A stretch of 64,000 nucleotides of DNA from an uncultured delta proteobacterium (GTDB lineage Bacteria > Myxococcota > Myxococcia > Myxococcales > UBA5297). The notes beneath the pieces were generated by a model. The model was not told the origin of the DNA and did no database searches. It saw nothing but the letters and a program-made list of their open reading frames with translations. The DNA is taken from positions 41,724 to 105,723 of the forward strand of contig CAVYWD010000010.1 in NCBI GenBank assembly GCA_963772225.1, written 5' to 3'. Made by a program: the position numbers and the translations under genes. Within the stretch, counting starts at the first letter, position 1. The number at the start of each line of letters is the position of its first letter. Of this stretch, positions 22,539 through 33,123 are shown piece by piece.

Positions 22539-24470
22539 CTACGGCACCGTCGCCAGGAATCCATTCGATCCGACTACCGTCAAGAGGCGCTCCGCCGGCG
22601 ACCAAGCGACGTCTTCAAAATGGAGCGTGTAGGAAAAGCTGCCGGGGGCATAGGGCGTCGCCTGACGGCGCCACGCCGCGCCGTCGGCGGAGCGGAGCAG
22701 CGTCGCGTTCGTCCCCACAGCGGCAAACTCGGCCCCGGTCCAGAGGACCCCGTGGAGGGACTCGGACGTGCCGGAAGCCCGCGGGCTCCAGGTCTCGCCG
22801 CCGTTGTCGCTCGACAGGATAGTGCCGCCGTCGCCCACGACGACGAGGCAAGCGCCCGACCCCGCGGCGCCGTTGAGCGCCGCGGCGACCCCGCTCGCGC
22901 GAGCTGTCCAGACCGAGCCGTCGGCGGGCGCGGTGGCGAGCGCGCCGGCCGGCCCCACCGCGACGAAGGCGCTGCCTGTCCAAAAAGCGCGGGTCAGTTG
23001 CTTGTCGCCCGGGACCGCGCGCGGCGTCCACGTGGTCCCGTCGGTCGAGGTCGCCAGGCATGGCCCGGTCAGCGATCCCCCGACGTTCACCAGCGTCGTG
23101 CCCGAGGATGCGAGGCCGATGTAGCACGGTGCATTGCCGATTCGAGTCCAGCTCTCTCCGTCGGCTGACCGAAACAACGCCTGGTTGGCGGCCTCGACCG
23201 ACATCGCGCCGAAGGCGTTCAGCGCCGGCGCCCAGATCACGTTGTCGAAGGCGTCCCCCGCACCTATCCCGGAATCCCGAAGGTAGCGATAGGCCCACGC
23301 GCCGCCGTCGGGCGCCACCTGGAGCACGTCCCCGCCGGTGGCGACCATTCGCCCCGAGGCGGGATCCCTCGCGATGGACCTGGTGTCGCCCGCCACGGCC
23401 AGCGGCTCCCAGACAAGACCGTCGGTCGAGGTGAACACCGCTCCGCTGCTGGTGGCGAGGTAGCGCTGGCCGTCGAAGATGGCCGCGCCGAGGATGGCGG
23501 GAGCGGTGCCGGTCTTCCAGGTGACCCCGTCGGCCGACGTGGCCGAAGCGTATTCGCCCAACGCGAGGTATTGGCCGTCGAGAAAGGCGACGCGGCCGAC
23601 GTAGCCCGCCGCCGAGTTGGCCGTCCACGACTTCAGGTCCGCGGACGAAAGGAGCTGGGACGGGATCGCGTTGGTCGAAGCCACCATCGATGTCGCCGAG
23701 GCAGCCGCGATCGACACGAGGTCGGAGGTCGTGGCCGCGGGCTGCAGCGTCCAGCTCAGGCCGTCGGGCGAGGAGACCACCGCGCCCTCCCTCCCGACGG
23801 CGACGAACTGGCCGCCCGCCCAAGTGACCGCCATGAGATCTTTCGAGGTCGGCGGAGGCGCGACCAGGGTCCAGGTGCTCCAGTCGCCGGGCTCGGAGGC
23901 TGCGGCGTGCAGGATGGCCCCACCGCTCCCCACGGCGACCCAAAGGCTGCCGGAAGAGGCAATGCCGTAGAGGCCTGGCCCGTTCAACGAGGGCATGGCG
24001 CTCTTCCAAATCAAGCCGTCGCTGGAGACGGACACGGACGCGCTTTCTCCGACCGCAGCAAAGTTGTGCCCGTCCCAGGCGACGTCGCGGAAGGAGGCGA
24101 AGGCTTCGCCGTCCAGCCACACCTTGGCATCGACGGACGACCACCGGCCGGGGCCCCCACCCACGGTGACGAAGCGCTTCCCGCTCCAAGCGAGCGCTCC
24201 GACGGGCGCGACAAACACTTGCGTGGTCCACCCGAGGGAGTCCGCGGCGCCGGCGCCGCTCGCCGCGCCAGCCGCGGAGTCGCGGCGGCACCCGGCCGCG
24301 AGCAGGGCTGCCGCGGCGAGGGCCGCCCGCGCGGCAGCATGGCGGCGCCGGCCGACGGCCGGTCCTCGGCCCGGGAGCGATGGGCCGAGCGAGAAATCGG
24401 CCTGGACCCGGTCGTCAGCCCTTCGACGAAGCGGCAGAAGGGCCCTCTCGGTCCGTTCCAAGTCGCACAT
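22539..24470 (-). CDS. Beta-propeller lipoprotein with BNR/Ycf48-like repeats
   Basis: There are at least 8 SxDGxxW-type repeats (SSDGLIW, SPDGLSW, SADGVTW, STDGLVW, SADGESW, STDGTTW, SDNGGETW, SADGAAW). The lipobox is LLAAGC. The true start is uncertain. Confidence 0.75.
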   Translation of the reverse strand: MCDLERTERALLPLRRRADDRVQADFSLGPSLPGRGPAVGRRRHAAARAALAAAALLAAGCRRDSAAGAASGAGAADSLGWTTQVFVAPVGALAWSGKRFVTVGGGPGRWSSVDAKVWLDGEAFASFRDVAWDGHNFAAVGESASVSVSSDGLIWKSAMPSLNGPGLYGIASSGSLWVAVGSGGAILHAAASEPGDWSTWTLVAPPPTSKDLMAVTWAGGQFVAVGREGAVVSSPDGLSWTLQPAATTSDLVSIAAASATSMVASTNAIPSQLLSSADLKSWTANSAAGYVGRVAFLDGQYLALGEYASATSADGVTWKTGTAPAILGAAIFDGQRYLATSSGAVFTSTDGLVWEPLAVAGDTRSIARDPASGRMVATGGDVLQVAPDGGAWAYRYLRDSGIGAGDAFDNVIWAPALNAFGAMSVEAANQALFRSADGESWTRIGNAPCYIGLASSGTTLVNVGGSLTGPCLATSTDGTTWTPRAVPGDKQLTRAFWTGSAFVAVGPAGALATAPADGSVWTARASGVAAALNGAAGSGACLVVVGDGGTILSSDNGGETWSPRASGTSESLHGVLWTGAEFAAVGTNATLLRSADGAAWRRQATPYAPGSFSYTLHFEDVAWSPAERLLTVVGSNGFLATVP

Positions 24471-24905: not shown

Positions 24906-25244
24906 TCAGCGACAGAGCTTGGTCAGCATGGCGACGATGCGCTCAAGCAGCTCGCAGCCTCGCCGATGTGCGGCAGCGTCGATGACCTTGAGCACGAGCA
25001 GGGCACCCAGGGCGGCGGCGCACTCCATCGCCGAACCGCGGGCGATGGCGTAGGTACGAGCTGCGTCTGCTTGTCCTGTCCGTCCAGCTGCTTCGGCGAT
25101 GTTCAAGGGGATCGAACTGGCTGCTCGCCGAAGCGGGTCCAAGACTGCGGAGTTCCCTCGAGGTGCATCGGATGAAAGCTGCGAAGCCAAGGCAAGAAGC
25201 TCGATGGATCGCTAGTAGACATCCATCTTCTGGAAGCTGAGCAT
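24906..25244 (-). pseudogene. Four-helix-bundle protein (23S rRNA IVS protein / Avd family) with an in-frame amber codon
   Basis: The translation is MLSFQKMDVY*RSIELL...DPLRRAASSIPLNIAEAAGRTG...ARGSAMECAAAL...ERIVAMLTKL. It fits the family pattern (dvw/y-q...L.dQLrRAa.SI.lNIAEG.gR...GS..E). The TAG is at 25212-25214, where Gln is expected. Confidence 0.7.
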
Positions 25245-25266
25245 TCTGATCGCAGAGCAAGCACCG

Positions 25267-25337
25267 CCGACACGACCGCCCACGGCCACGTCGCCGTCGC
25301 CGTCGCCGACCACGCCCACGTCGAGCGCCCACGTCAA
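25267..25337. repeat. Right arm of long inverted repeat flanking the four-helix-bundle gene
   Basis: See the left arm at 24827-24902. Confidence 0.85.
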
Positions 25338-25501: not shown

Positions 25502-26518
25502 TCAACCTTGGCTGCGGCGCCGCGGCTTCGGCTTGAAGGTCGAAGGCGGAACGCCCTCCCAGCGCTTGAACGCTCGCCGAAAATTCGCGAGGTCCGAGTA
25601 GCCGAGAAGGTACGCGACCTCCTGCATGCTGAAGCGCCCAGAGCGCACCTGCTCGACGGCGAGGGTGTGGCGCACGTCCTCGAGCAACGTCCGAAAAGAC
25701 GTCCCCTCGTCGAGCAGGCGCCGGTGGAGCGTGCGCGGCGTCAAGTGGAGCATCCGCGCGGTCATTCGAAGCGAAGGGAATCCGTCCTGCGATTCGAGCA
25801 GGGCGCGGCGCACTCGGGTCGCCACCGCCTCGCCGGCCGTCACCTTCTCGAGCTCGCGCTGGCAGATCAGCGCCGCCTCCCGAAGCGCCTCCGGGTCGGC
25901 GGTCTTCAACGGCGCGTCCAGCGACTCCGAGGGGATTTCGAACCCGGTCCACGAGGCCCCGTACCTCACCTCGCACCCAAACATCTCGCGGGCCAGGGCC
26001 GCGTACTCCGGCGCCTCGAACGAGAAGGCCGCCGCGCTCGCCTGGCTGCCGCCGGCGGCGAGCGCGCTCTCGATGCTGAGCACGATGGCCTCGAGGACGG
26101 GGCGGCGGATGTCTCCGAGAGGGCGGTTCTCCTCGAACTGCAGGCGAACCCCGCGCGGGGCGCCCGTGACCGCGATGGAGATCAAGTTGGTCCGCAGCTG
26201 CGTGTAGCGCGCGATGAGCTCGAGCCCCTCGCGGACGGTGCCGCAGCTCATGGCCGCGAAGCCGACGATGCCGTGGCTGCTCGCCACCAAGCGCCGGCCC
26301 ACGAAGAGCCCGAGCGCCGGCTCGCGCGTCGTCGCGAGCGCGTTTCGGATGAGCTCGTCGAAGCGCTCGTGGTCGAGCGTGAAAGAGGCGGACGCGAGCC
26401 GGGCCTCGGACAGACCGCTCAACGAGAGCCATCGCCCGACGTCTCCCCCCGCCGCGCGAACGCCCTCCGCGACGTACCGCAGGTACGAGACCGGCAGCCT
26501 GAAGCCTTCGTTCTTCAT
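25502..26518 (-). CDS. AraC-family transcriptional regulator (OruR/AlkR-like architecture)
   Basis: 338 aa. The C-terminus carries a double HTH (LHLTPRTLHRRLLDEGTSFRTLL...VAYLLGYSDLANFRRAFKRWEG). It is divergent from the AlkB fusion gene across a 129-bp gap. Confidence 0.85.
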   Translation of the reverse strand: MKNEGFRLPVSYLRYVAEGVRAAGGDVGRWLSLSGLSEARLASASFTLDHERFDELIRNALATTREPALGLFVGRRLVASSHGIVGFAAMSCGTVREGLELIARYTQLRTNLISIAVTGAPRGVRLQFEENRPLGDIRRPVLEAIVLSIESALAAGGSQASAAAFSFEAPEYAALAREMFGCEVRYGASWTGFEIPSESLDAPLKTADPEALREAALICQRELEKVTAGEAVATRVRRALLESQDGFPSLRMTARMLHLTPRTLHRRLLDEGTSFRTLLEDVRHTLAVEQVRSGRFSMQEVAYLLGYSDLANFRRAFKRWEGVPPSTFKPKPRRRSQG

Positions 26519-26647
26519 GCCTCGCGTCCCCGCTTCCGGTTGGCGATGAATGACCCACGATTGTCAATACCAGACCTTACCTGCCACCAGAATCATTGCT
26601 TATCGTTCCTTCTCATCCCGAAGACCGGGGATCGACTCGGAGCGACC

Positions 26648-28879
26648 ATGGCCACTTCCGCTTCTTCGAAGCCGCTGCTCGCCGTTCGCATCAACGATCA
26701 AACCATCCGAGCGCAGCCCCGCGAGACGATCCTGCAGGCCGCCCTGCGGAGCGGCATCGAGCTCCCGAGCAACTGCCGCGTCGGAGGCTGCGGCACCTGC
26801 AAGTGCCGTCTCGTCGAGGGCCAGGTGAAGGAGCTGACCGAGGCCGGCTATCTCCTCACGGCCGAGGAGATCGACCAGGGCATGATCCTCGCCTGCCAGA
26901 GCGTGCCGCGCTCCGACGTCCGGATTCAGGTCGACCTTGGCGTGAGCGCTTCGCGGCGCAGCGTGCGCGGCCGCGTCGTGGCGCAGGAGAAGGTGACCCA
27001 TGACATCGCTCGGCTGACGGTCGCGTTGGAGGAGCGCCTGCCCTACCGAGCGGGCCAGCATGCGGAAGTGGAGATCGACGGTCTGGCTGGGGTGGTGCGG
27101 AGCTACTCCTTCGCCACTCCTCCGAGCGACGACGGGCGGGTTGTCTTCTTCGTGCGCGAGGTGCCCAGGGGCCAGCTGTCGACGATGGTCAACGACGAGG
27201 ACCTCGTGGGGCGGGGGGTCCAGGTCGACGGCCCGTCGGGCGACTTCTGGCTGAGGCCCGGCGACGCGCCGCTGCTCTTCGCCGCCGGCGGGAGCGGCCT
27301 CGCGCCCATTCTCGCCATCCTGAAGGAGGCGCTCGCGGCCGGCTCCTCTCGCTCGGTGACGCTGCTCTTGGGAGCGCGGGAGGAGAAGGACCTCTTCGCC
27401 CTCGACGAGATCGCCGCCTTCGCCCGCGCGTGGCGCGGCAGCTTTCGCTTCGTGCCCGTGCTCTCGGCCGCCGGTCCGGGAGGGACGTGGAGCGGCGAGC
27501 GCGGCCTCGCGGCCGAGAAGCTTCCGGCGCTCCTCGAGCCCGGCGCGCACGCCTACGTCTGCGGCCCGCCGGCGATGATCGACGGCGCCCTCGCGGCCCT
27601 GAAGGCGCAAGGCGTCCCGCAGGGCCGCGTCCACGTCGACCTCTTCGCGGCGCAGGGGGAGGCGACCGGAGCGCTCGGCGCGGCTGACCGCCCCGACCCC
27701 GAGGGAGCTCGGTACGCCGGCGCGCTTCACTACTTGAAGTACTTCTTGTTTCACGCCATCGGGCTCTACTCGGTGGCCGCGATCGCCCTCGGCGGCTCCA
27801 GGGTCGCCGAGGGGACGTTCGGGCTGCTCGTGATCTACCTGCTGGGAGACGCTCTGTGCGGCGAAGACACCTCGTCGCCCCGGTTCAAGCACCCGTGGGT
27901 GCTCACCGCGCAGCTCTGGCTGGCGCTCCCACTCCTCGGGCTGATTGTCTTCATGACGGTGTGGAGCGTCTGCCCGGGCGATCCGCTCGGCTTCGGAGCG
28001 TTCCTGACGCGGGCCATCGGGCGCGACGTCTTCGCCTCTCGGGCCGCCAGCTCGCTCGGGAACCAGGTGGCGAGGTGGCTGGCCACCGGGCTCTTGATCG
28101 GGATGATCGGGACCATCACCGCCCACGAGCTCACGCACCGCACCTGGGACAAGGTCTCGATGCTCATCGGGCGCTGGCTCCTGGCCTTCAGCTTCGACAC
28201 GGCCTTCGCCATCGAGCACGTCTACGGCCATCACCGCTACGTCGGGACGACAGAGGATCCGGCGACCGCGCCCCGAGGTCGCAGCGTCTACGCCCACATC
28301 GTCTCCTCGACGATCCGGGGAAATGTCAGCGCCTGGCGCATCGAGGCCGAGCGGCTCAGGAAGAAGCGCCAGGCGGTGCTCTCCTGGCACAACGCCTACC
28401 TTCGAGGACAGCTGATGAGCGCCGCGCTCCTGGCCGCGGCCTTTGCGATGGGGGGGTGGAGGGCGGCGGCCTTCTTCGCGGCGTGTGCGCTCTGGGGCAA
28501 GGCGCTGCTGGAGATCGTGAACTACATGGAGCACTACGGCATGGTGCGAGACCCGGCGAAGCCGGTGCAGCCGCGCCACTCCTGGAACACCAACCAGCGC
28601 GTCAGCTCGTGGACGATGTTCAACCTGACTCGCCACTCGCACCATCACGCGCAGGGCGAGGTGCCCTACCAGGACCTGAAGCCATATCCGGCCGCGCCGA
28701 TGATGCTCAACGGGTACCTGGCCACCATCGCGCTCGCGCTCATCCCGCCGCTCTGGCACGCGCTGATGACGCCCAAGGTGCTCGCCTGGGACCGCGACTT
28801 CGCGAGCGACGAAGAGCGGGCGCTGGCGGCCCGCGCGAACGCCCGGAGCGGGATCCGCGCCCTGCAGGCGCACGCGTAA
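26648..28879 (+). CDS. alkB: Fusion of a 2Fe-2S ferredoxin, an FNR-type ferredoxin reductase and an AlkB-type membrane alkane 1-monooxygenase
   Basis: 743 aa. The ferredoxin part has CRVGGCGTCKC...ACQS. The reductase part has RSYSFA, GGSGLAPI and YVCGPPAM. The AlkB part has TM helices and His boxes HELTHR, EHVYGHHRYV, NYMEHYG and LTRHSHHHA. Confidence 0.9.
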   Translation: MATSASSKPLLAVRINDQTIRAQPRETILQAALRSGIELPSNCRVGGCGTCKCRLVEGQVKELTEAGYLLTAEEIDQGMILACQSVPRSDVRIQVDLGVSASRRSVRGRVVAQEKVTHDIARLTVALEERLPYRAGQHAEVEIDGLAGVVRSYSFATPPSDDGRVVFFVREVPRGQLSTMVNDEDLVGRGVQVDGPSGDFWLRPGDAPLLFAAGGSGLAPILAILKEALAAGSSRSVTLLLGAREEKDLFALDEIAAFARAWRGSFRFVPVLSAAGPGGTWSGERGLAAEKLPALLEPGAHAYVCGPPAMIDGALAALKAQGVPQGRVHVDLFAAQGEATGALGAADRPDPEGARYAGALHYLKYFLFHAIGLYSVAAIALGGSRVAEGTFGLLVIYLLGDALCGEDTSSPRFKHPWVLTAQLWLALPLLGLIVFMTVWSVCPGDPLGFGAFLTRAIGRDVFASRAASSLGNQVARWLATGLLIGMIGTITAHELTHRTWDKVSMLIGRWLLAFSFDTAFAIEHVYGHHRYVGTTEDPATAPRGRSVYAHIVSSTIRGNVSAWRIEAERLRKKRQAVLSWHNAYLRGQLMSAALLAAAFAMGGWRAAAFFAACALWGKALLEIVNYMEHYGMVRDPAKPVQPRHSWNTNQRVSSWTMFNLTRHSHHHAQGEVPYQDLKPYPAAPMMLNGYLATIALALIPPLWHALMTPKVLAWDRDFASDEERALAARANARSGIRALQAHA

Positions 28880-29601
28880 GCGACCGCGGGTGGCGGCGCC
28901 GAAGCCGCGCTCGACCGCGGGGCGACGTGCATCATCCAGGCCTGGGACAGCTCCCAGGCGAACCGCGCGCGAAGCGAGCTCGCGCCTCCATCACCACGAC
29001 TTACCCCTGCCACGAGGACCTTTCCGATGGGGAGCCACGTCGCGGTGTGATGGACCTCGCCTCGGGGGCGATCTCGAGCCTCGAGCGGAATTTCATGAGC
29101 CTCGACCTGCGCGTCGGGCTCGGCACGGACAGCATCCAGAGTTCGTTCCAGCAACACGGCGTAAAGGCTCGCCGTGTTCACGGCCGGCGCGGCGACCGTG
29201 GGCGCGGCCTTCTCGCTCGCGAATGCGGTGGGCCGGCTCGGGCAGTCGATCGCGGAGGAGGCCCAGGCGGAACGAAACACTTCAGAGGCCCGGCGCTCAC
29301 TCGCTGTCTCCGCCATTTACCAGTTTGTATCCTTTGACCCCTGGGACCGGCTGGGCCCCAGGTGCGGCACGAGGAGGTTCGCGCCCTTCTGGTTGCCGAG
29401 CCGGTACCTCAGCGCTGCGCGATGGCTCTGCCCTCGGGAAAGCCCAGACGCACGGAAACCGCTTGTCTTCGGGGCTGAAGTCACGAGGCGGGCCGCACCT
29501 TGCGCGCGCGCTCCGCGGCCCGGCACCGTGGCCAAGCTGCTGAGCCTCTTGGAGGCGTGAGGCCTGGGGCCGGGAGCGCACCTCCCGGCGTACGCCGCAC
29601 G

Positions 29602-29988
29602 CTAGGACAAAGCCGGGACCGGGGACTTGCTCTCGAACCACTGGAGCACGTCCTGCCCCGCTGTCGTCTCGTCGACCTCGAAGTCGACGGGGCCCTGCCT
29701 CCCGCCGTGCCGGATGTGCCCGGCATCCTTCGAGAACGACAAGAAGTACGTCACGCCCTTCAGGTCGAACCAGCAAGAGCCCAGGTGGTGACCTTCGCGA
29801 ATGCCCGGCTTGAGGGTGCCGGGCTCGTGGTAGGTCGCCACCGCGCCGGTCAGGGTGAGCAAGACGTGCTCGAACTCCGGCGCCTGATTCTTCGCCTTCC
29901 CGAGGGCCGTCCTGGCGACCTCGCGCAGCACGTCCATCTCAAGCACCGTCGGCATCGTCATCGCGGACCTCTTCTGGTCGAGGGACAA
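29602..29988 (-). CDS. Hypothetical cytoplasmic protein
   Basis: 128-aa ORF with protein-like composition and high third-position GC. I recognised no family. The start may be an internal Met (MTMPTV). Confidence 0.5.
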   Translation of the reverse strand: MSLDQKRSAMTMPTVLEMDVLREVARTALGKAKNQAPEFEHVLLTLTGAVATYHEPGTLKPGIREGHHLGSCWFDLKGVTYFLSFSKDAGHIRHGGRQGPVDFEVDETTAGQDVLQWFESKSPVPALS

Positions 29989-30231: not shown

Positions 30232-33123
30232 TCAGCGCGGGCCGTCTTCTTCTTTCGGCGCTTCGGCGCGCGCCCTCGGGTAGGGCCTGCCGCCCATCAG
30301 GCCTTCCCAGAGGATCTTGTTGTAGACGGCCGAGTCCAGCCGGTCCTCCGCCGAGAAATCCATGCCGCGGGTCTTCTCGGCCCAGTAGGCCGCGCCGTGC
30401 GTCGGCGCGAGCTTCGCCGCCGCGGTCGCCTTCGGCAGCGGGAGCTTTGTGCTCGAGAGCAGCGGCGACGGCGTGGCCTTGAAGGTCCACGCCTTCTTGC
30501 GCACCTCGAAGGCCTCGGTCATCGGCTCGGCGGCGGCGTCGAAGAGCCCCAGGTGGTCGAGCCCGAGCACGTCGGTGATGGTCCGCAGGACGTTGACGGT
30601 GGTGTAGTGGTGGCTCACCACCGCGCCCTGCTTCACGTGAGGCCCGACGACGAAGGCGACGCTCCGGTGGGCGTCGACGTGGTCGGGGCCGTCCTGGGCG
30701 TCGTCCTCGAAGACGAAGACGACCGTGTCCTTGGCGTAGGGGCTTTGCGCCACCGCCTCCAGGAGGCGGCCCACCGCGTAGTCGTTGTCGGCGACCTGGA
30801 GCTCCGGCGTGGCGACGCCGTCGATGGCCGAGCCGTAGCTGCCGGTGTGGTCATTCATGAAGCGAACCAGGCTCAGGCTCGGCAGGTTTCCATTCTTCAC
30901 GAATTCGGCGAATTCGCTCTCCCACTCCTGCTCCCGGTAGAAATCGGGGTAGGCGTCGTCGAAGCCGCGGAAATAGGGGTCGGTCAGGGCGACCAGGTCC
31001 GGGTTGGCGACGTAAGCCTGGAAAGGATCGGCGCTGGGCCCCGATTTCTTGAATGGCGGCCTTTGCAGCGGAATGGCCAGGCTCGCGTAGGGCGTTCCAC
31101 CCAGCCGGTAGCGCGTCAAGTCGACGAGGAACCCGTAGTTGCGGACGGTGAGGCCCTTGCGAAGCGCCGCATTCCACAGATACCCCTGCTGGACCTCGCC
31201 CGAAGGCCCGTCCGGCGCCGCCACGTCGCCCGTCCCGGGCAGCGTGTCCGGGTCGAGCGCGGCCGTCAGCGGATTGGCCTGAACCCGCGCCGCGCCCGTG
31301 AGGCCGACGTTCACGTTCCGATTCGTCCCCTCCCAGTCGTAGGAGCCGCCGCGCCCCTTGTTGCAAGCCGGACCGCCCAGGGGGCTGCAGGCGTAATTGA
31401 CCGGCAGCATCTTGGCGCCCGCATCCGACTCGCGCGCCGACGTGCTCCAGGGCCAGCCGTTTCCGCTGACCTCGCCGGAGTCGTAGAAGTTGTCCAGCGT
31501 CACGAAGCCCGCGGCCGCGGCATGCAGGTTCGGGGTGGTCGCGGCCGGGAACTCCGCCAGCTCCTTGTCGCCGTTGCCCTTGCCGAGGTCGCCGAGGATC
31601 TGGTCGTAGGCCCGGTTCTCCTTGACGATGTAGATGACGTGCTTGATGGACCCGCGGAGCGCCTCCATCACCTGGCGGTCACGGCCGCTCGGCTCGTATC
31701 CGACTCGGTTGTTTTGGGCGACCTGCCAGGTCAATCGCTCGAGCTCGCGCGACGCGGGGACCGGAACCGTCTGCAGCCCGCCTTTGTTCAAGTTCTCCAC
31801 GTACTGATTGGCGTCGAACTTCACGGGCGTGTCCTTTACCGGGCACGGGTAATATTGGTAGCCCAGGCAATTGCCCGCATTGGGGCCCGGCACGCTCTTG
31901 GTGTTGACGACGTAGAGCATGCGGCCGAGGGCCCCGACGGCGACGTCCGACGGATACCAGGCGGTCGGCACGAGCCCGACCACCCGGGGCGCGCCCTCGT
32001 CCAGAGCGATGATTGCCACCGAGTTTGTTCCGCGGTTCGTCACATACAGCTGCTTCTCGTCCGGCGAGAGCGCCAGGGCGTTGGGCGAGGCGCCCTTGTA
32101 GCGAGGCAAGCCCTTCGCGTCGCAGTCGGCCTCGGGGCCCACCGTGGCGACCTGGCGGGTCACCTTTCGGGTCGCGGTGTCGATGATGGAGACGACGTCC
32201 GCGTTGTCGGAGGTCGCGAAGAGCCGGCGGTGCGCGCGGTCGAGCAGGAGTCGATTGGGGTTGCCTGCGACCCGGATGCGCGCGGCCACCGCGGGCGCGG
32301 CCCCGGAGAGGTCGACCTCCACGATCTCGCGGTCGCGCTCGCTCGAGACGTAGGCGGTGGCGCTGCCGGCGATGGCGACCGAATTCGGGTATTCGCCGCC
32401 CGGAGTGCCCGCGGCCCCGCCGCTCTTTCCGGGGCGCAGGTCGAGCTCGGCCACCTTGCCGGTGGAGAGGTCGACGACCGAGATGGAGTCGTGGTAGCGG
32501 TTGGCCACGACGGCGCGCTTGCCGTCGGCCGTCACGGCGAGGCCCGAGGCGAGCGGCCCCTGAGACAAGCCATTCCCGGCGCCGTGCCCGAGCGCGATGG
32601 GCGCGCCGGCCTCGGCAAAGACCCCCTTCGCCGAGGCGAAGACGTGGAGGTTGTCGTCGCCGCCTCCCGCGACATAGAAGCGCGAGTCGTCGGGCCCGAA
32701 GGCGATGCCGACGTAGGTGTCGGGCACCTGCAACACCTGCTTCTGGACCGGCTCCTCGCGGCTGACGTCGAACACGAAGACGTACTCATTCGACGCGCCG
32801 ACGGCGATGGGAAGAGTGCTCGGCTTCGAAACCGAGCCGGCCGAGGCGTCGTAATTGTTGTTGTAGCCGCTGGTGAGGACGAGCAGCGTCTTTCGGTCGG
32901 GGCTCAGCGCGAGAGAAATGGGCTGGCCGGCCACGAACTCCGGAAAATCGTGGAGCCCGGGGTTGAGCTGCCGGTAGGTCGACCCCGGCGCGGCCCTCGG
33001 CGTCATCGATTGACCGGTGGGAAGAAGGATGGGGACGAGCTCCGGCGGCTGAGCCGCGAGCAACGACAAGAGGGGCAAGGCGACGGCATTTGGAATCATC
33101 GAAGGGATCTCCCGTAACGACAT
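30232..33123 (-). CDS. Secreted beta-propeller (YVTN/YncE-like) fused to a phospholipase C / acid-phosphatase (phosphoesterase) domain
   Basis: 963 aa. The N-terminal half has a signal peptide and propeller repeats (YVAGGGDDNLHVF, LYVTNRGTNSVAII). The C-terminal half has IKHVIYIVKENRAYDQILG and FVFEDDAQDGPDHVDAHRS, typical of PF04185-type phosphoesterases. Confidence 0.85.
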   Translation of the reverse strand: MSLREIPSMIPNAVALPLLSLLAAQPPELVPILLPTGQSMTPRAAPGSTYRQLNPGLHDFPEFVAGQPISLALSPDRKTLLVLTSGYNNNYDASAGSVSKPSTLPIAVGASNEYVFVFDVSREEPVQKQVLQVPDTYVGIAFGPDDSRFYVAGGGDDNLHVFASAKGVFAEAGAPIALGHGAGNGLSQGPLASGLAVTADGKRAVVANRYHDSISVVDLSTGKVAELDLRPGKSGGAAGTPGGEYPNSVAIAGSATAYVSSERDREIVEVDLSGAAPAVAARIRVAGNPNRLLLDRAHRRLFATSDNADVVSIIDTATRKVTRQVATVGPEADCDAKGLPRYKGASPNALALSPDEKQLYVTNRGTNSVAIIALDEGAPRVVGLVPTAWYPSDVAVGALGRMLYVVNTKSVPGPNAGNCLGYQYYPCPVKDTPVKFDANQYVENLNKGGLQTVPVPASRELERLTWQVAQNNRVGYEPSGRDRQVMEALRGSIKHVIYIVKENRAYDQILGDLGKGNGDKELAEFPAATTPNLHAAAAGFVTLDNFYDSGEVSGNGWPWSTSARESDAGAKMLPVNYACSPLGGPACNKGRGGSYDWEGTNRNVNVGLTGAARVQANPLTAALDPDTLPGTGDVAAPDGPSGEVQQGYLWNAALRKGLTVRNYGFLVDLTRYRLGGTPYASLAIPLQRPPFKKSGPSADPFQAYVANPDLVALTDPYFRGFDDAYPDFYREQEWESEFAEFVKNGNLPSLSLVRFMNDHTGSYGSAIDGVATPELQVADNDYAVGRLLEAVAQSPYAKDTVVFVFEDDAQDGPDHVDAHRSVAFVVGPHVKQGAVVSHHYTTVNVLRTITDVLGLDHLGLFDAAAEPMTEAFEVRKKAWTFKATPSPLLSSTKLPLPKATAAAKLAPTHGAAYWAEKTRGMDFSAEDRLDSAVYNKILWEGLMGGRPYPRARAEAPKEEDGPR

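Follow-up and report, generated by a model that had tools for sequence, protein, structure and literature searches.

Genes and features at the locus

Our analysis of the window, a stretch of 64,000 nucleotides from the genome of a member of the Myxococcales (9.1 Mb, 96.4% complete), revealed a single gene that encodes a plant-type ferredoxin, an FNR-type reductase and an AlkB-type membrane di-iron hydroxylase in one polypeptide, with a divergently oriented gene for an AraC/XylS-family regulator next to it (Table 1). The translation comprises 743 residues with a stop codon only at the end. It contains four Pfam domains that all exceed their curated cut-offs, namely Fer2, FAD_binding_6 (residues 109-200), NAD_binding_1 (213-313) and FA_desaturase (PF00487, 477-679), the last of which is the sole Pfam match of the C-terminal half. 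The set of cofactor motifs is complete (C-x4-C-x2-C...C, RxYS, GGxGxxP and nine histidines in four motifs). Specifically, the ferredoxin and reductase part carries CRVGGCGTCKC at residue 43, RSYS at 151, GGSGLAP at 214 and CGPP at 305, and the hydroxylase part carries HELTHR at 493, EHVYGHH at 523, NYMEHYG at 625 and RHSHHHA at 662. The cluster ligands C43, C48, C51 and C83 as well as the nine AlkB histidines H493, H497, H524, H528, H529, H629, H663, H666 and H667 are invariant in an alignment of 48 sequences.

A sequence-only reading of this DNA had proposed one 743-residue reading frame of ferredoxin, reductase and AlkB, quoted its ferredoxin, reductase and His-box motifs, and placed a divergent AraC regulator beside it. 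We recovered the uninterrupted translation with its four domains in order, located every quoted motif in it, and found the regulator gene on the minus strand, with Arabinose_bd and HTH_18 domains, across a gap of 129 bp. The same reading had named a frameshift or stop between the modules as the finding that would speak against a fusion. There is no internal stop, and the four domains recur together on a single chain in more than 120 independent protein clusters, so the fusion is no sequencing artefact. The start codon is supported by the GGAG located 5 nt upstream and by many homologues that align from residue 1. Simple scans detected neither a sigma-70 consensus promoter nor a terminator 3′ of the hydroxylase gene, which is monocistronic and followed by convergent genes.

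Table 1. Features of the hydroxylase locus, in positions of the window.
Feature	Position	Strand	Basis
AraC/XylS-family regulator gene, 338 aa, divergent from hydroxylase gene	25502..26518	-	Pfam PF12625 Arabinose_bd, E 1e-36; PF12833 HTH_18, E 1.7e-18
Candidate AraC operator, direct repeat with copies at 26541-26555 and 26562-26576, spaced by 21 bp	26541..26577	+	Conserved intergenic element
Shine-Dalgarno GGAG, 5 nt upstream of start codon ATG (26648)	26639..26642	+	Read from sequence
Fd-FNR-AlkB gene, 743 codons/aa, stop included	26648-28879	+	Translation, Pfam, homologues
Fer2, plant-type 2Fe-2S ferredoxin, residues 17-87	26696..26908	+	Pfam, E 3e-17
FNR-type reductase, residues 109-313	26972..27586	+	Pfam PF00970, PF00175
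Linker, residues 334-353, joining the soluble reductase to the first TM helix	27647..27706	+	AlphaFold2 pLDDT <50
AlkB-type membrane di-iron hydroxylase, residues ~355-743	27710..28876	+	PDB matches, Foldseek, hydropathy

Affinities of the reductase and hydroxylase halves

The reductase half gave full-length NCBIfam matches to BenC and MmoC, both below the cut-off, and shares 38% identity with XylA of the TOL plasmid. Its predicted structure resembles GcoB, T4moF and BenC with TM scores of 0.64-0.67 (Foldseek). All AlkB signatures are present in the hydroxylase half (HE[LM]xH[KR], EHxxGHH, NYxEHYG and RH[SA]xHH), and hydropathy predicts six transmembrane helices, four of which precede His box 1, with a hairpin preceding the HYG motif. 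By sequence, this half matched the AlkB structures 8f6t (E 1.6e-42, 149 bits) and 8sbb (E 2e-37), and its predicted fold aligned to them across the entire membrane domain, with TM scores of 0.69 over 393 columns and 0.73 over 373 columns, respectively (Foldseek). The comparison with AlkB and xylene monooxygenase that the sequence-only reading had asked for favoured the former: plasmid-borne AlkBs reached 33-37% identity and 110-119 bits, and XylM of pWW0 only about 30% identity and 93 bits (E 9e-18). We also considered the additional histidine of box 3 (RHSHHHA, versus RHSDHHA in canonical AlkB) as a possible change of ligand and rejected this, as the position varies across the wider superfamily (H, D, S, A, N or Q). 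Within the clade of the window protein the RHSHHHA form is nearly fixed.

Regulator and candidate operator

The regulator matched the NCBIfam CypR model (NF053784) over its full length with 151.6 bits, but this is far below the 500-bit equivalog cut-off, and on sequence grounds it is a relative of CypR and not a CypR equivalog. The intergenic region contains a direct repeat that belongs to a family with the consensus TGTCAAtAAATGACC-N6-TGTCAA-N5-gaCCT, built from 47 sites, from which the window copy departs at the first TGTCAA. Among related loci, the core AATGAC-N7-9-TGTCAA was present in 51 of 61 intergenic regions, with a spacing of 7 in 46 of them, and sits mostly 66-92 nt upstream of the start codon. 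The 9.1-Mb genome holds a single copy of the exact core; 0.04 copies are expected in the window. This repeat is a candidate operator for the AraC-type regulator.

Of 80 related loci, roughly 60 have a divergently oriented AraC homologue upstream, and the pairing is conserved throughout the whole clade. The conserved neighbourhood consists of AraC, reductase and AlkB only. When all flanking ORFs of the 80 loci were clustered, no other neighbour family was found in more than nine loci, after two clusters (25 and 23 loci) had been set aside as presumably overlapping spurious ORFs in GC-rich DNA. The remaining neighbour genes of the window are absent from every related locus examined.

Family distribution and phylogeny

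Polypeptides of 713-785 aa with all four domains form the more than 120 protein clusters mentioned above (64-78% identity), and species genomes contain at least 523 relatives. The architecture is thus common in genomes, being found across hundreds of bacterial species. Of 77 loci, 45 have reductase and alkB as separate adjacent genes, and 17 of the latter have both genes in the same frame, with the open frames 3-36 nt apart. The reductase stop codon of split relatives falls within the region that matches linker residues 334-353. The split form was found in Thalassolituus, Oleispira, Marinobacter and Alcanivoracaceae, which are marine oil degraders.

The one member of the family that has been expressed reportedly came from Limnobacter sp. 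MED105, and we used the locus of Limnobacter sp. 130 as its nearest stand-in. A quick LG+G4 tree placed the window protein together with the latter in a clade of 28 members, all of them fused, with moderate support (SH-aLRT 90), at an identity of only about 53% between the two. The unconstrained tree requires at least four changes between the fused and split states. Multiple origins of the fusion are not claimed here, as an AU test does not reject the tree that unites all 33 fused rows (lnL difference 0.79, p 0.50).

These results support assignment of the window protein to the published ferr_ferrR_AlkB family, and the architecture is therefore not new. The family was predicted from sequence in 2014 with four genes from Limnobacter, Leptospira and Polaromonas (Nie et al. 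2014, PMC4021335). One member has been expressed and was active on alkanes, with NADH as sole requirement and a preference for C10-C12, according to what later papers cite of that study (Williams et al. 2022, J Inorg Biochem 228:111707, cited for activity in PMC8918992 and PMC12903215 and for cofactor and chain length in PMC12903215). The sequence-only reading had held that Fd-FNR-AlkB fusions are rarely reported. This is borne out for the literature, with its four predicted genes and one characterised enzyme, but not for genomes, given the cluster and relative counts above.

Host genome and origin of the gene

The host genome encodes a single AlkB homologue, and a profile search for rubredoxin (PF00301) found none in this 96.4% complete assembly. 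In place of the canonical AlkBGT arrangement, in which rubredoxin (AlkG) and rubredoxin reductase (AlkT) are the electron donors, the donor here is the fused ferredoxin and FNR module. The gene was absent from all 12 genomes of the same family that were searched, and the three-domain form was found in only two of 151 genomes of the Myxococcales. Its absence from the 12 family relatives makes horizontal transfer likely. AraC, reductase and AlkB move jointly as a small unit, and this myxobacterium probably acquired it by this route. To place the boundaries of an insertion, we searched these 12 genomes for the flanking genes at 22539-24470 and 30232-33123, and neither of them is conserved there.

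Proposed function and alternatives

We consider it likely that the gene product is a self-sufficient alkane 1-monooxygenase that is driven by NAD(P)H and belongs to the ferredoxin/ferredoxin-reductase/AlkB family. Judging from the domain families, NAD(P)H would reduce the FAD of the FNR module, and the electrons would then move one at a time, first to the attached 2Fe-2S cluster and from there to the AlkB di-iron site with its nine histidines. This site would then activate O2 and hydroxylate a terminal C-H, and the fused enzyme should require no rubredoxin. With a cytoplasmic reductase, the four transmembrane helices that separate it from His box 1 would place all redox centres at the cytoplasmic face. 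By analogy with the studied relatives, the substrate is most likely a medium-chain n-alkane of about C8-C12. The AraC-type CypR relative would bind the direct repeat with its 21-bp spacing, located immediately 5′ of the presumed promoter, and turn the gene on in the presence of substrate.

The same chemistry could be directed at a physiological substrate other than an environmental n-alkane, such as a lipid of the cell itself or of its prey, a fatty alcohol, an ether lipid or a hydrocarbon-like secondary metabolite of the myxobacterium. This would agree with a monocistronic gene that is followed by convergent genes, and with the finding that neither here nor in its relatives is it linked to genes of an alkane pathway, such as those for alcohol or aldehyde dehydrogenases; furthermore, myxobacteria (Myxococcales) are, to our knowledge, not known as alkane degraders. 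We nevertheless regard such a substrate as unlikely, since occurrence in none of 12 family genomes and two of 151 order genomes would be expected of an accessory catabolic trait more readily than of a lipid pathway specific to the lineage, since typical oil-degrading genera carry the same AraC-reductase-AlkB module and candidate operator, and since the studied relatives oxidise n-alkanes.

Two further readings concern the enzyme class. A fused enzyme of the XylMA type, with aromatic or terpenoid methyl groups as its target in place of linear alkanes, is suggested by the XylA/BenC architecture of the reductase with its similarity to XylA and by the detectable homology of XylM to the hydroxylase half. 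However, AlkBs score higher than XylM, both those from plasmids and those in the PDB, the protein groups with the Limnobacter lineage, whose enzyme reportedly oxidises alkanes, and no aromatic-pathway genes were found nearby, so that this appears very improbable. Still less credible is a membrane fatty-acid desaturase with a fused reductase. Such a function is what the public annotation implies, as NCBI names the relatives 'fatty acid desaturase' and Pfam matches the C-terminal half only to PF00487, but this domain spans the whole superfamily, and the protein has the AlkB-specific NYxEHYG motif, the AlkB forms of the His boxes and matches to AlkB structures at E 1e-42. In addition, the annotation of such proteins as fatty acid desaturases has been called a mis-identification (PMC8918992).

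With alkane hydroxylation as the preferred reading, a broader view can be put forward, to which we give less than even credence. AraC, the Fd-FNR reductase and AlkB might form a self-contained, horizontally mobile cassette that senses and oxidises its substrate, with a 21-bp-spaced TGTCAA-N4-TGACC direct repeat as operator that is conserved from Myxococcota to Gammaproteobacteria, and with reductase and hydroxylase fused or separated more than once. If true, its presence in a member of the Myxococcales would suggest that a predatory lineage of the soil oxidises alkanes without this having been recognised, or hydroxylates hydrocarbons of its own or of its prey. The fused enzyme represents one form of an AraC-reductase-AlkB module that is widespread and also occurs as two genes, and the natural pairs of fused and split forms could be used to test the benefit of fusion. 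The gene described here adds a fairly divergent and GC-rich member to a family that is already valued in biocatalysis, where its appeal is terminal alkane hydroxylation from a single gene with NADH alone, and the strongly conserved candidate operator could, together with the regulator, make a compact alkane biosensor. The labels 'fatty acid desaturase' and 'flavin reductase' persist in public annotation, which thus probably leads to an underestimate of the potential for alkane oxidation in Myxococcota and in other lineages of soil and freshwater.

Comparison with known systems

The window protein shares with the ferr_ferrR_AlkB family the order of ferredoxin, FAD, NAD and AlkB domains, a length of about 740-775 aa and the cysteine and histidine ligands. 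It differs in its host, a member of the Myxococcales, whereas Limnobacter is a betaproteobacterium. By description, it is also similar in size to a 754-aa oxidoreductase-AlkB fusion encoded on an ICE of Pseudomonas putida EM2-4, in which an oxidoreductase half of about 333 residues at the N-terminus is followed by an AlkB half, and which was studied in 2026 and reported as limited to n-octane and n-decane as substrates (PMC12903215). The location of that fusion on a mobile element matches the patchy distribution observed here.

Canonical AlkB of the AlkB/AlkG/AlkT system (P. putida GPo1) and the AlkB-rubredoxin fusion of Fontimonas thermophila (8f6t, 8sbb) have the same six-helix fold, nine-histidine site and HYG motif, with 30% identity to 8f6t over the 393 structurally aligned columns, although divergence from the solved AlkBs prevents HMMER from aligning the first three to four membrane helices. 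Both receive their electrons from rubredoxin and rubredoxin reductase, unlike the protein described here, and in F. thermophila the rubredoxin is fused at the C-terminus. XylM/XylA of TOL plasmid pWW0 likewise combines a plant-type ferredoxin and FNR reductase with a membrane di-iron hydroxylase of the AlkB superfamily, but as two separate subunits, with an aromatic methyl substrate and under XylR/XylS control.

AraC activators of the CypR type are responsive to alkanes of C8-C18 (PMC8784404). CypR and AlkR, the activators of CYP153 and alkM, resemble the regulator described here in being full-length AraC-type proteins encoded divergently across an intergenic region of 115-130 bp. A further counterpart is the two-gene form of Marinobacter, Pseudomonas citronellolis, Burkholderia, Aquabacterium, Thalassolituus and Oleispira, in which a BenC/XylA-type reductase gene lies directly upstream of alkB. 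Its hydroxylase is 50-73% identical and has the same His-box variants HELTHR and LTRHSHHHA, and the divergent AraC gene and the operator repeat are present as well, but reductase and hydroxylase are encoded by separate ORFs, which in the myxobacterial gene are joined in one polypeptide.

The hydroxylase gene and its product

Translation of the hydroxylase gene gave 743 residues with no internal stops, as the sequence-only reading had claimed, and its coding frame was marked by third-position GC. The start codon is sound, since GGAG lies 5 nt upstream of the ATG and homologue alignments to the window protein begin at residue 1. The claimed modules, namely a 2Fe-2S ferredoxin (Fd), an FAD/NAD reductase (FNR) and the membrane di-iron hydroxylase AlkB, were recovered as four Pfam domains, the motifs quoted for them were all found at the expected positions, and the divergent AraC-type regulator proved to be full-length. 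Further downstream, the first genes whose third-position GC looks coding lie on the opposite strand, and the hydroxylase gene is therefore probably monocistronic.

Table. Features of the hydroxylase locus and its surroundings
Feature	Position	Strand	Remarks
Open reading frame (ORF)	24943-25332	-	129 aa, just past AraC gene; no Pfam match at E 0.01
AraC-type regulator	25502-26518	-	Full-length; Pfam Arabinose_bd + HTH_18
Direct-repeat element (candidate operator)	26541-26577		Window copy of family consensus
Hydroxylase gene	26648-28879	+	Fd-FNR-AlkB
Fer2	residues 17-87		Pfam, above curated cut-off
FAD_binding_6	residues 109-200		Pfam, above curated cut-off
NAD_binding_1	residues 213-313		Pfam, above curated cut-off
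FA_desaturase	residues 477-679		Pfam, above curated cut-off
Gap after AlkB stop	28880-29600		~720 bp
ORF within gap	28890-29543	+	217 codons; failed third-position GC filter
ORF convergent with AlkB gene	29602-29988	-	128 aa
Two-domain protein	30232-33123	-	963 aa; lactonase-type seven-bladed beta-propeller + phosphoesterase (phospholipase C / acid phosphatase family)

The ORF within the gap had no Pfam or NCBIfam match and no counterpart at any related locus. Its convergent neighbor matched VCH_CASS14, a family of integron cassette proteins, weakly and below threshold (E 1.4e-4, 22.4 bits vs a 26.7-bit cut-off) and is not kept beside the module at other related loci. The two-domain protein is nearly missing from same-family genomes.

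The N-terminal 335 residues matched class-IB three-cofactor reductases over their full length. NCBIfam matches of this part were to BenC, MmoC and AntC, each below the equivalog cut-off; its closest PDB entries by sequence were GcoB, T4moF and BenC, which were also the matches of the predicted fold. The C-terminal 390 residues matched two solved AlkB structures (E 1.6e-42 and 2e-37). The HMMER alignment to these structures covered the fourth helix onward only, and the AlphaFold2 model (mean pLDDT 80.6, with linker residues 334-353 as the sole long low-confidence stretch) superposes on AlkB across 373-393 columns, that is, the whole membrane domain. Hydropathy places four helices ahead of the first histidine box and a helical hairpin ahead of the HYG motif; the cytoplasmic reductase and all histidine boxes therefore share one side of the membrane. 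Across 48 aligned sequences there was no variation in the four cysteines of the cluster, in the motifs for flavin and nucleotide or in the nine histidines of AlkB.

Distribution, fused and split forms

More than 120 clusters, at 64-78% identity, came back from a word-indexed protein search, and all of them fit the four domains into 713-785 residues. A scan of one genome per species yielded at least 523 relatives, from taxa including Myxococcales, Polyangiales, Pirellulales, Aquabacterium, Hydrogenophaga, Limnobacter, Leptospira, Marinobacter, Pseudomonas and Burkholderia. Two relatives are plasmid-borne (Polaromonas naphthalenivorans CJ2 and Hydrocarboniclastica marina). The host genome (Myxococcales; 9.1 Mb, about 70% GC, 96% complete) encodes one AlkB homologue, and rubredoxin was undetected in it. 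For a housekeeping acyl-CoA mutase encoded in the window, the nearest named relatives (72-75% identity) are from Archangium, Hyalangium, Myxococcus and Anaeromyxobacteraceae, which places the genome in Myxococcales. None of 12 same-family genomes searched contained the Fd-FNR-AlkB gene, and the three-domain form occurred in just one other genome of 151 from the same order. GC content at the locus was unremarkable. The patchy distribution, a clade of mixed phyla and a two-gene module independent of its context all point to horizontal acquisition.

Among 77 classifiable loci, 32 carried a single fused ORF and 45 a reductase gene followed directly by a separate alkB on the same strand. Reductase and alkB share a frame in 17 of the 45 split loci, close to the one-third expected by chance, with open frames 3-36 nt apart. 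At eight split loci (L004, L007, L010, L027, L031, L037, L039, L073) one stop codon separates same-frame genes, so that one point mutation would interconvert the two forms. A hydroxylase-domain phylogeny, built by maximum likelihood, placed the window protein in a 28-row all-fused clade (SH-aLRT 90) together with Limnobacter, Hydrogenophaga, Lysobacteraceae, Pirellulales and several Myxococcota; when the tree is rooted on the outgroup, split forms occupy its deeper branches (Thalassolituus, Oleispira, Marinobacter). The free tree requires at least four fused/split changes. Uniting the fused forms in one clade was not rejected by an AU test (p 0.50), so the fusion may have arisen once or more often.

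Other fusions were also seen. Two proteins from the representative search, P0129 (786 aa) and P0136 (742 aa), carry AlkB N-terminally, then Fer2, FAD_binding_6 and NAD_binding_1; at 44-48% identity to the window hydroxylase domain, they join the same partners in opposite order. P0123 (520 aa) and four frames from genomes of the same order (G008:C43, G102:C1, G117:C111, G114:C15) are two-domain ferredoxin-AlkB fusions of 495-536 aa that cover residues 5-113 of the query and, further on, about 350-740 (G114: 466-739). They have no FNR module; their reductase must be encoded elsewhere.

Regulator and candidate operator

An AraC homologue is encoded divergently upstream in about 60 of the 80 related loci compared, fused and split alike, and no neighbor besides the AraC-reductase-AlkB module was conserved across them. 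The closest relative (78% identity) carries both genes in an unrelated context, with a cadherin-like gene on one side and lepA on the other. In the window 129 bp separate the two genes. Two direct repeats, spaced 21 bp apart, recur in the intergenic regions (consensus TGTCAAtAAATGACC-N6-TGTCAA-N5-gaCCT); the core is present in 51 of the 61 regions and mostly sits 66-92 nt ahead of the start codon. The entire 9.1-Mb genome holds one copy of the exact core, with 0.04 copies expected in the window. A promoter-adjacent 21-bp direct repeat is the classic AraC-family arrangement, and we propose the repeat as a candidate operator of the regulator. The regulator itself matches the NCBIfam model of CypR, an alkane-responsive activator of CYP153 (PMC8784404), over its full length, well below the cut-off. 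Of the by-products of our analysis, we rate this conserved candidate operator and the pairs of fused and split forms as the most useful.

Predicted function and known systems

We consider it likely that the window protein is an NAD(P)H-driven terminal alkane hydroxylase that needs no separate partner and is induced via its AraC partner. A medium-chain alkane is its probable substrate. NAD(P)H would drive the hydroxylation within one polypeptide, and the AraC partner would mediate induction of the gene. We count as weaknesses of the alkane reading the identity of about 53% to the Limnobacter sp. 130 locus, that no linked downstream pathway was found, and that the host group is not known for alkane use. 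A physiological substrate other than an alkane seems unlikely. An XylMA-like specificity is more improbable still, even though XylA of the TOL plasmid shares 38% identity with the window reductase part. Least probable of all is a desaturase, although "fatty acid desaturase" is among the public names of relatives, next to "NAD(P)H-flavin reductase/ferredoxin".

The alkane hydroxylase reading also fits what has been published. The architecture was reported in 2014 by Nie et al. for four genes from Leptospira, Limnobacter and Polaromonas (PMC4021335). According to a 2022 mini-review (PMC8918992), this "ferr_ferrR_AlkB" fusion has been expressed, is active and does not epoxidise alkenes. Databases mislabel it as fatty acid desaturase or ferredoxin reductase (PMC8918992); we likewise found fused forms in public annotation without an alkane monooxygenase name. 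A 2022 primary study, as summarised in PMC12903215, described activity with NADH only, a preference for C10-C12 and a wide distribution. A similarly organised 754-aa protein is carried on an ICE in Pseudomonas putida, and for it a range limited to octane and decane was reported (PMC12903215). The observation and interpretation of the sequence-only reading are correct, and the window enzyme adds one more member to a kind that is already known, published and widespread.
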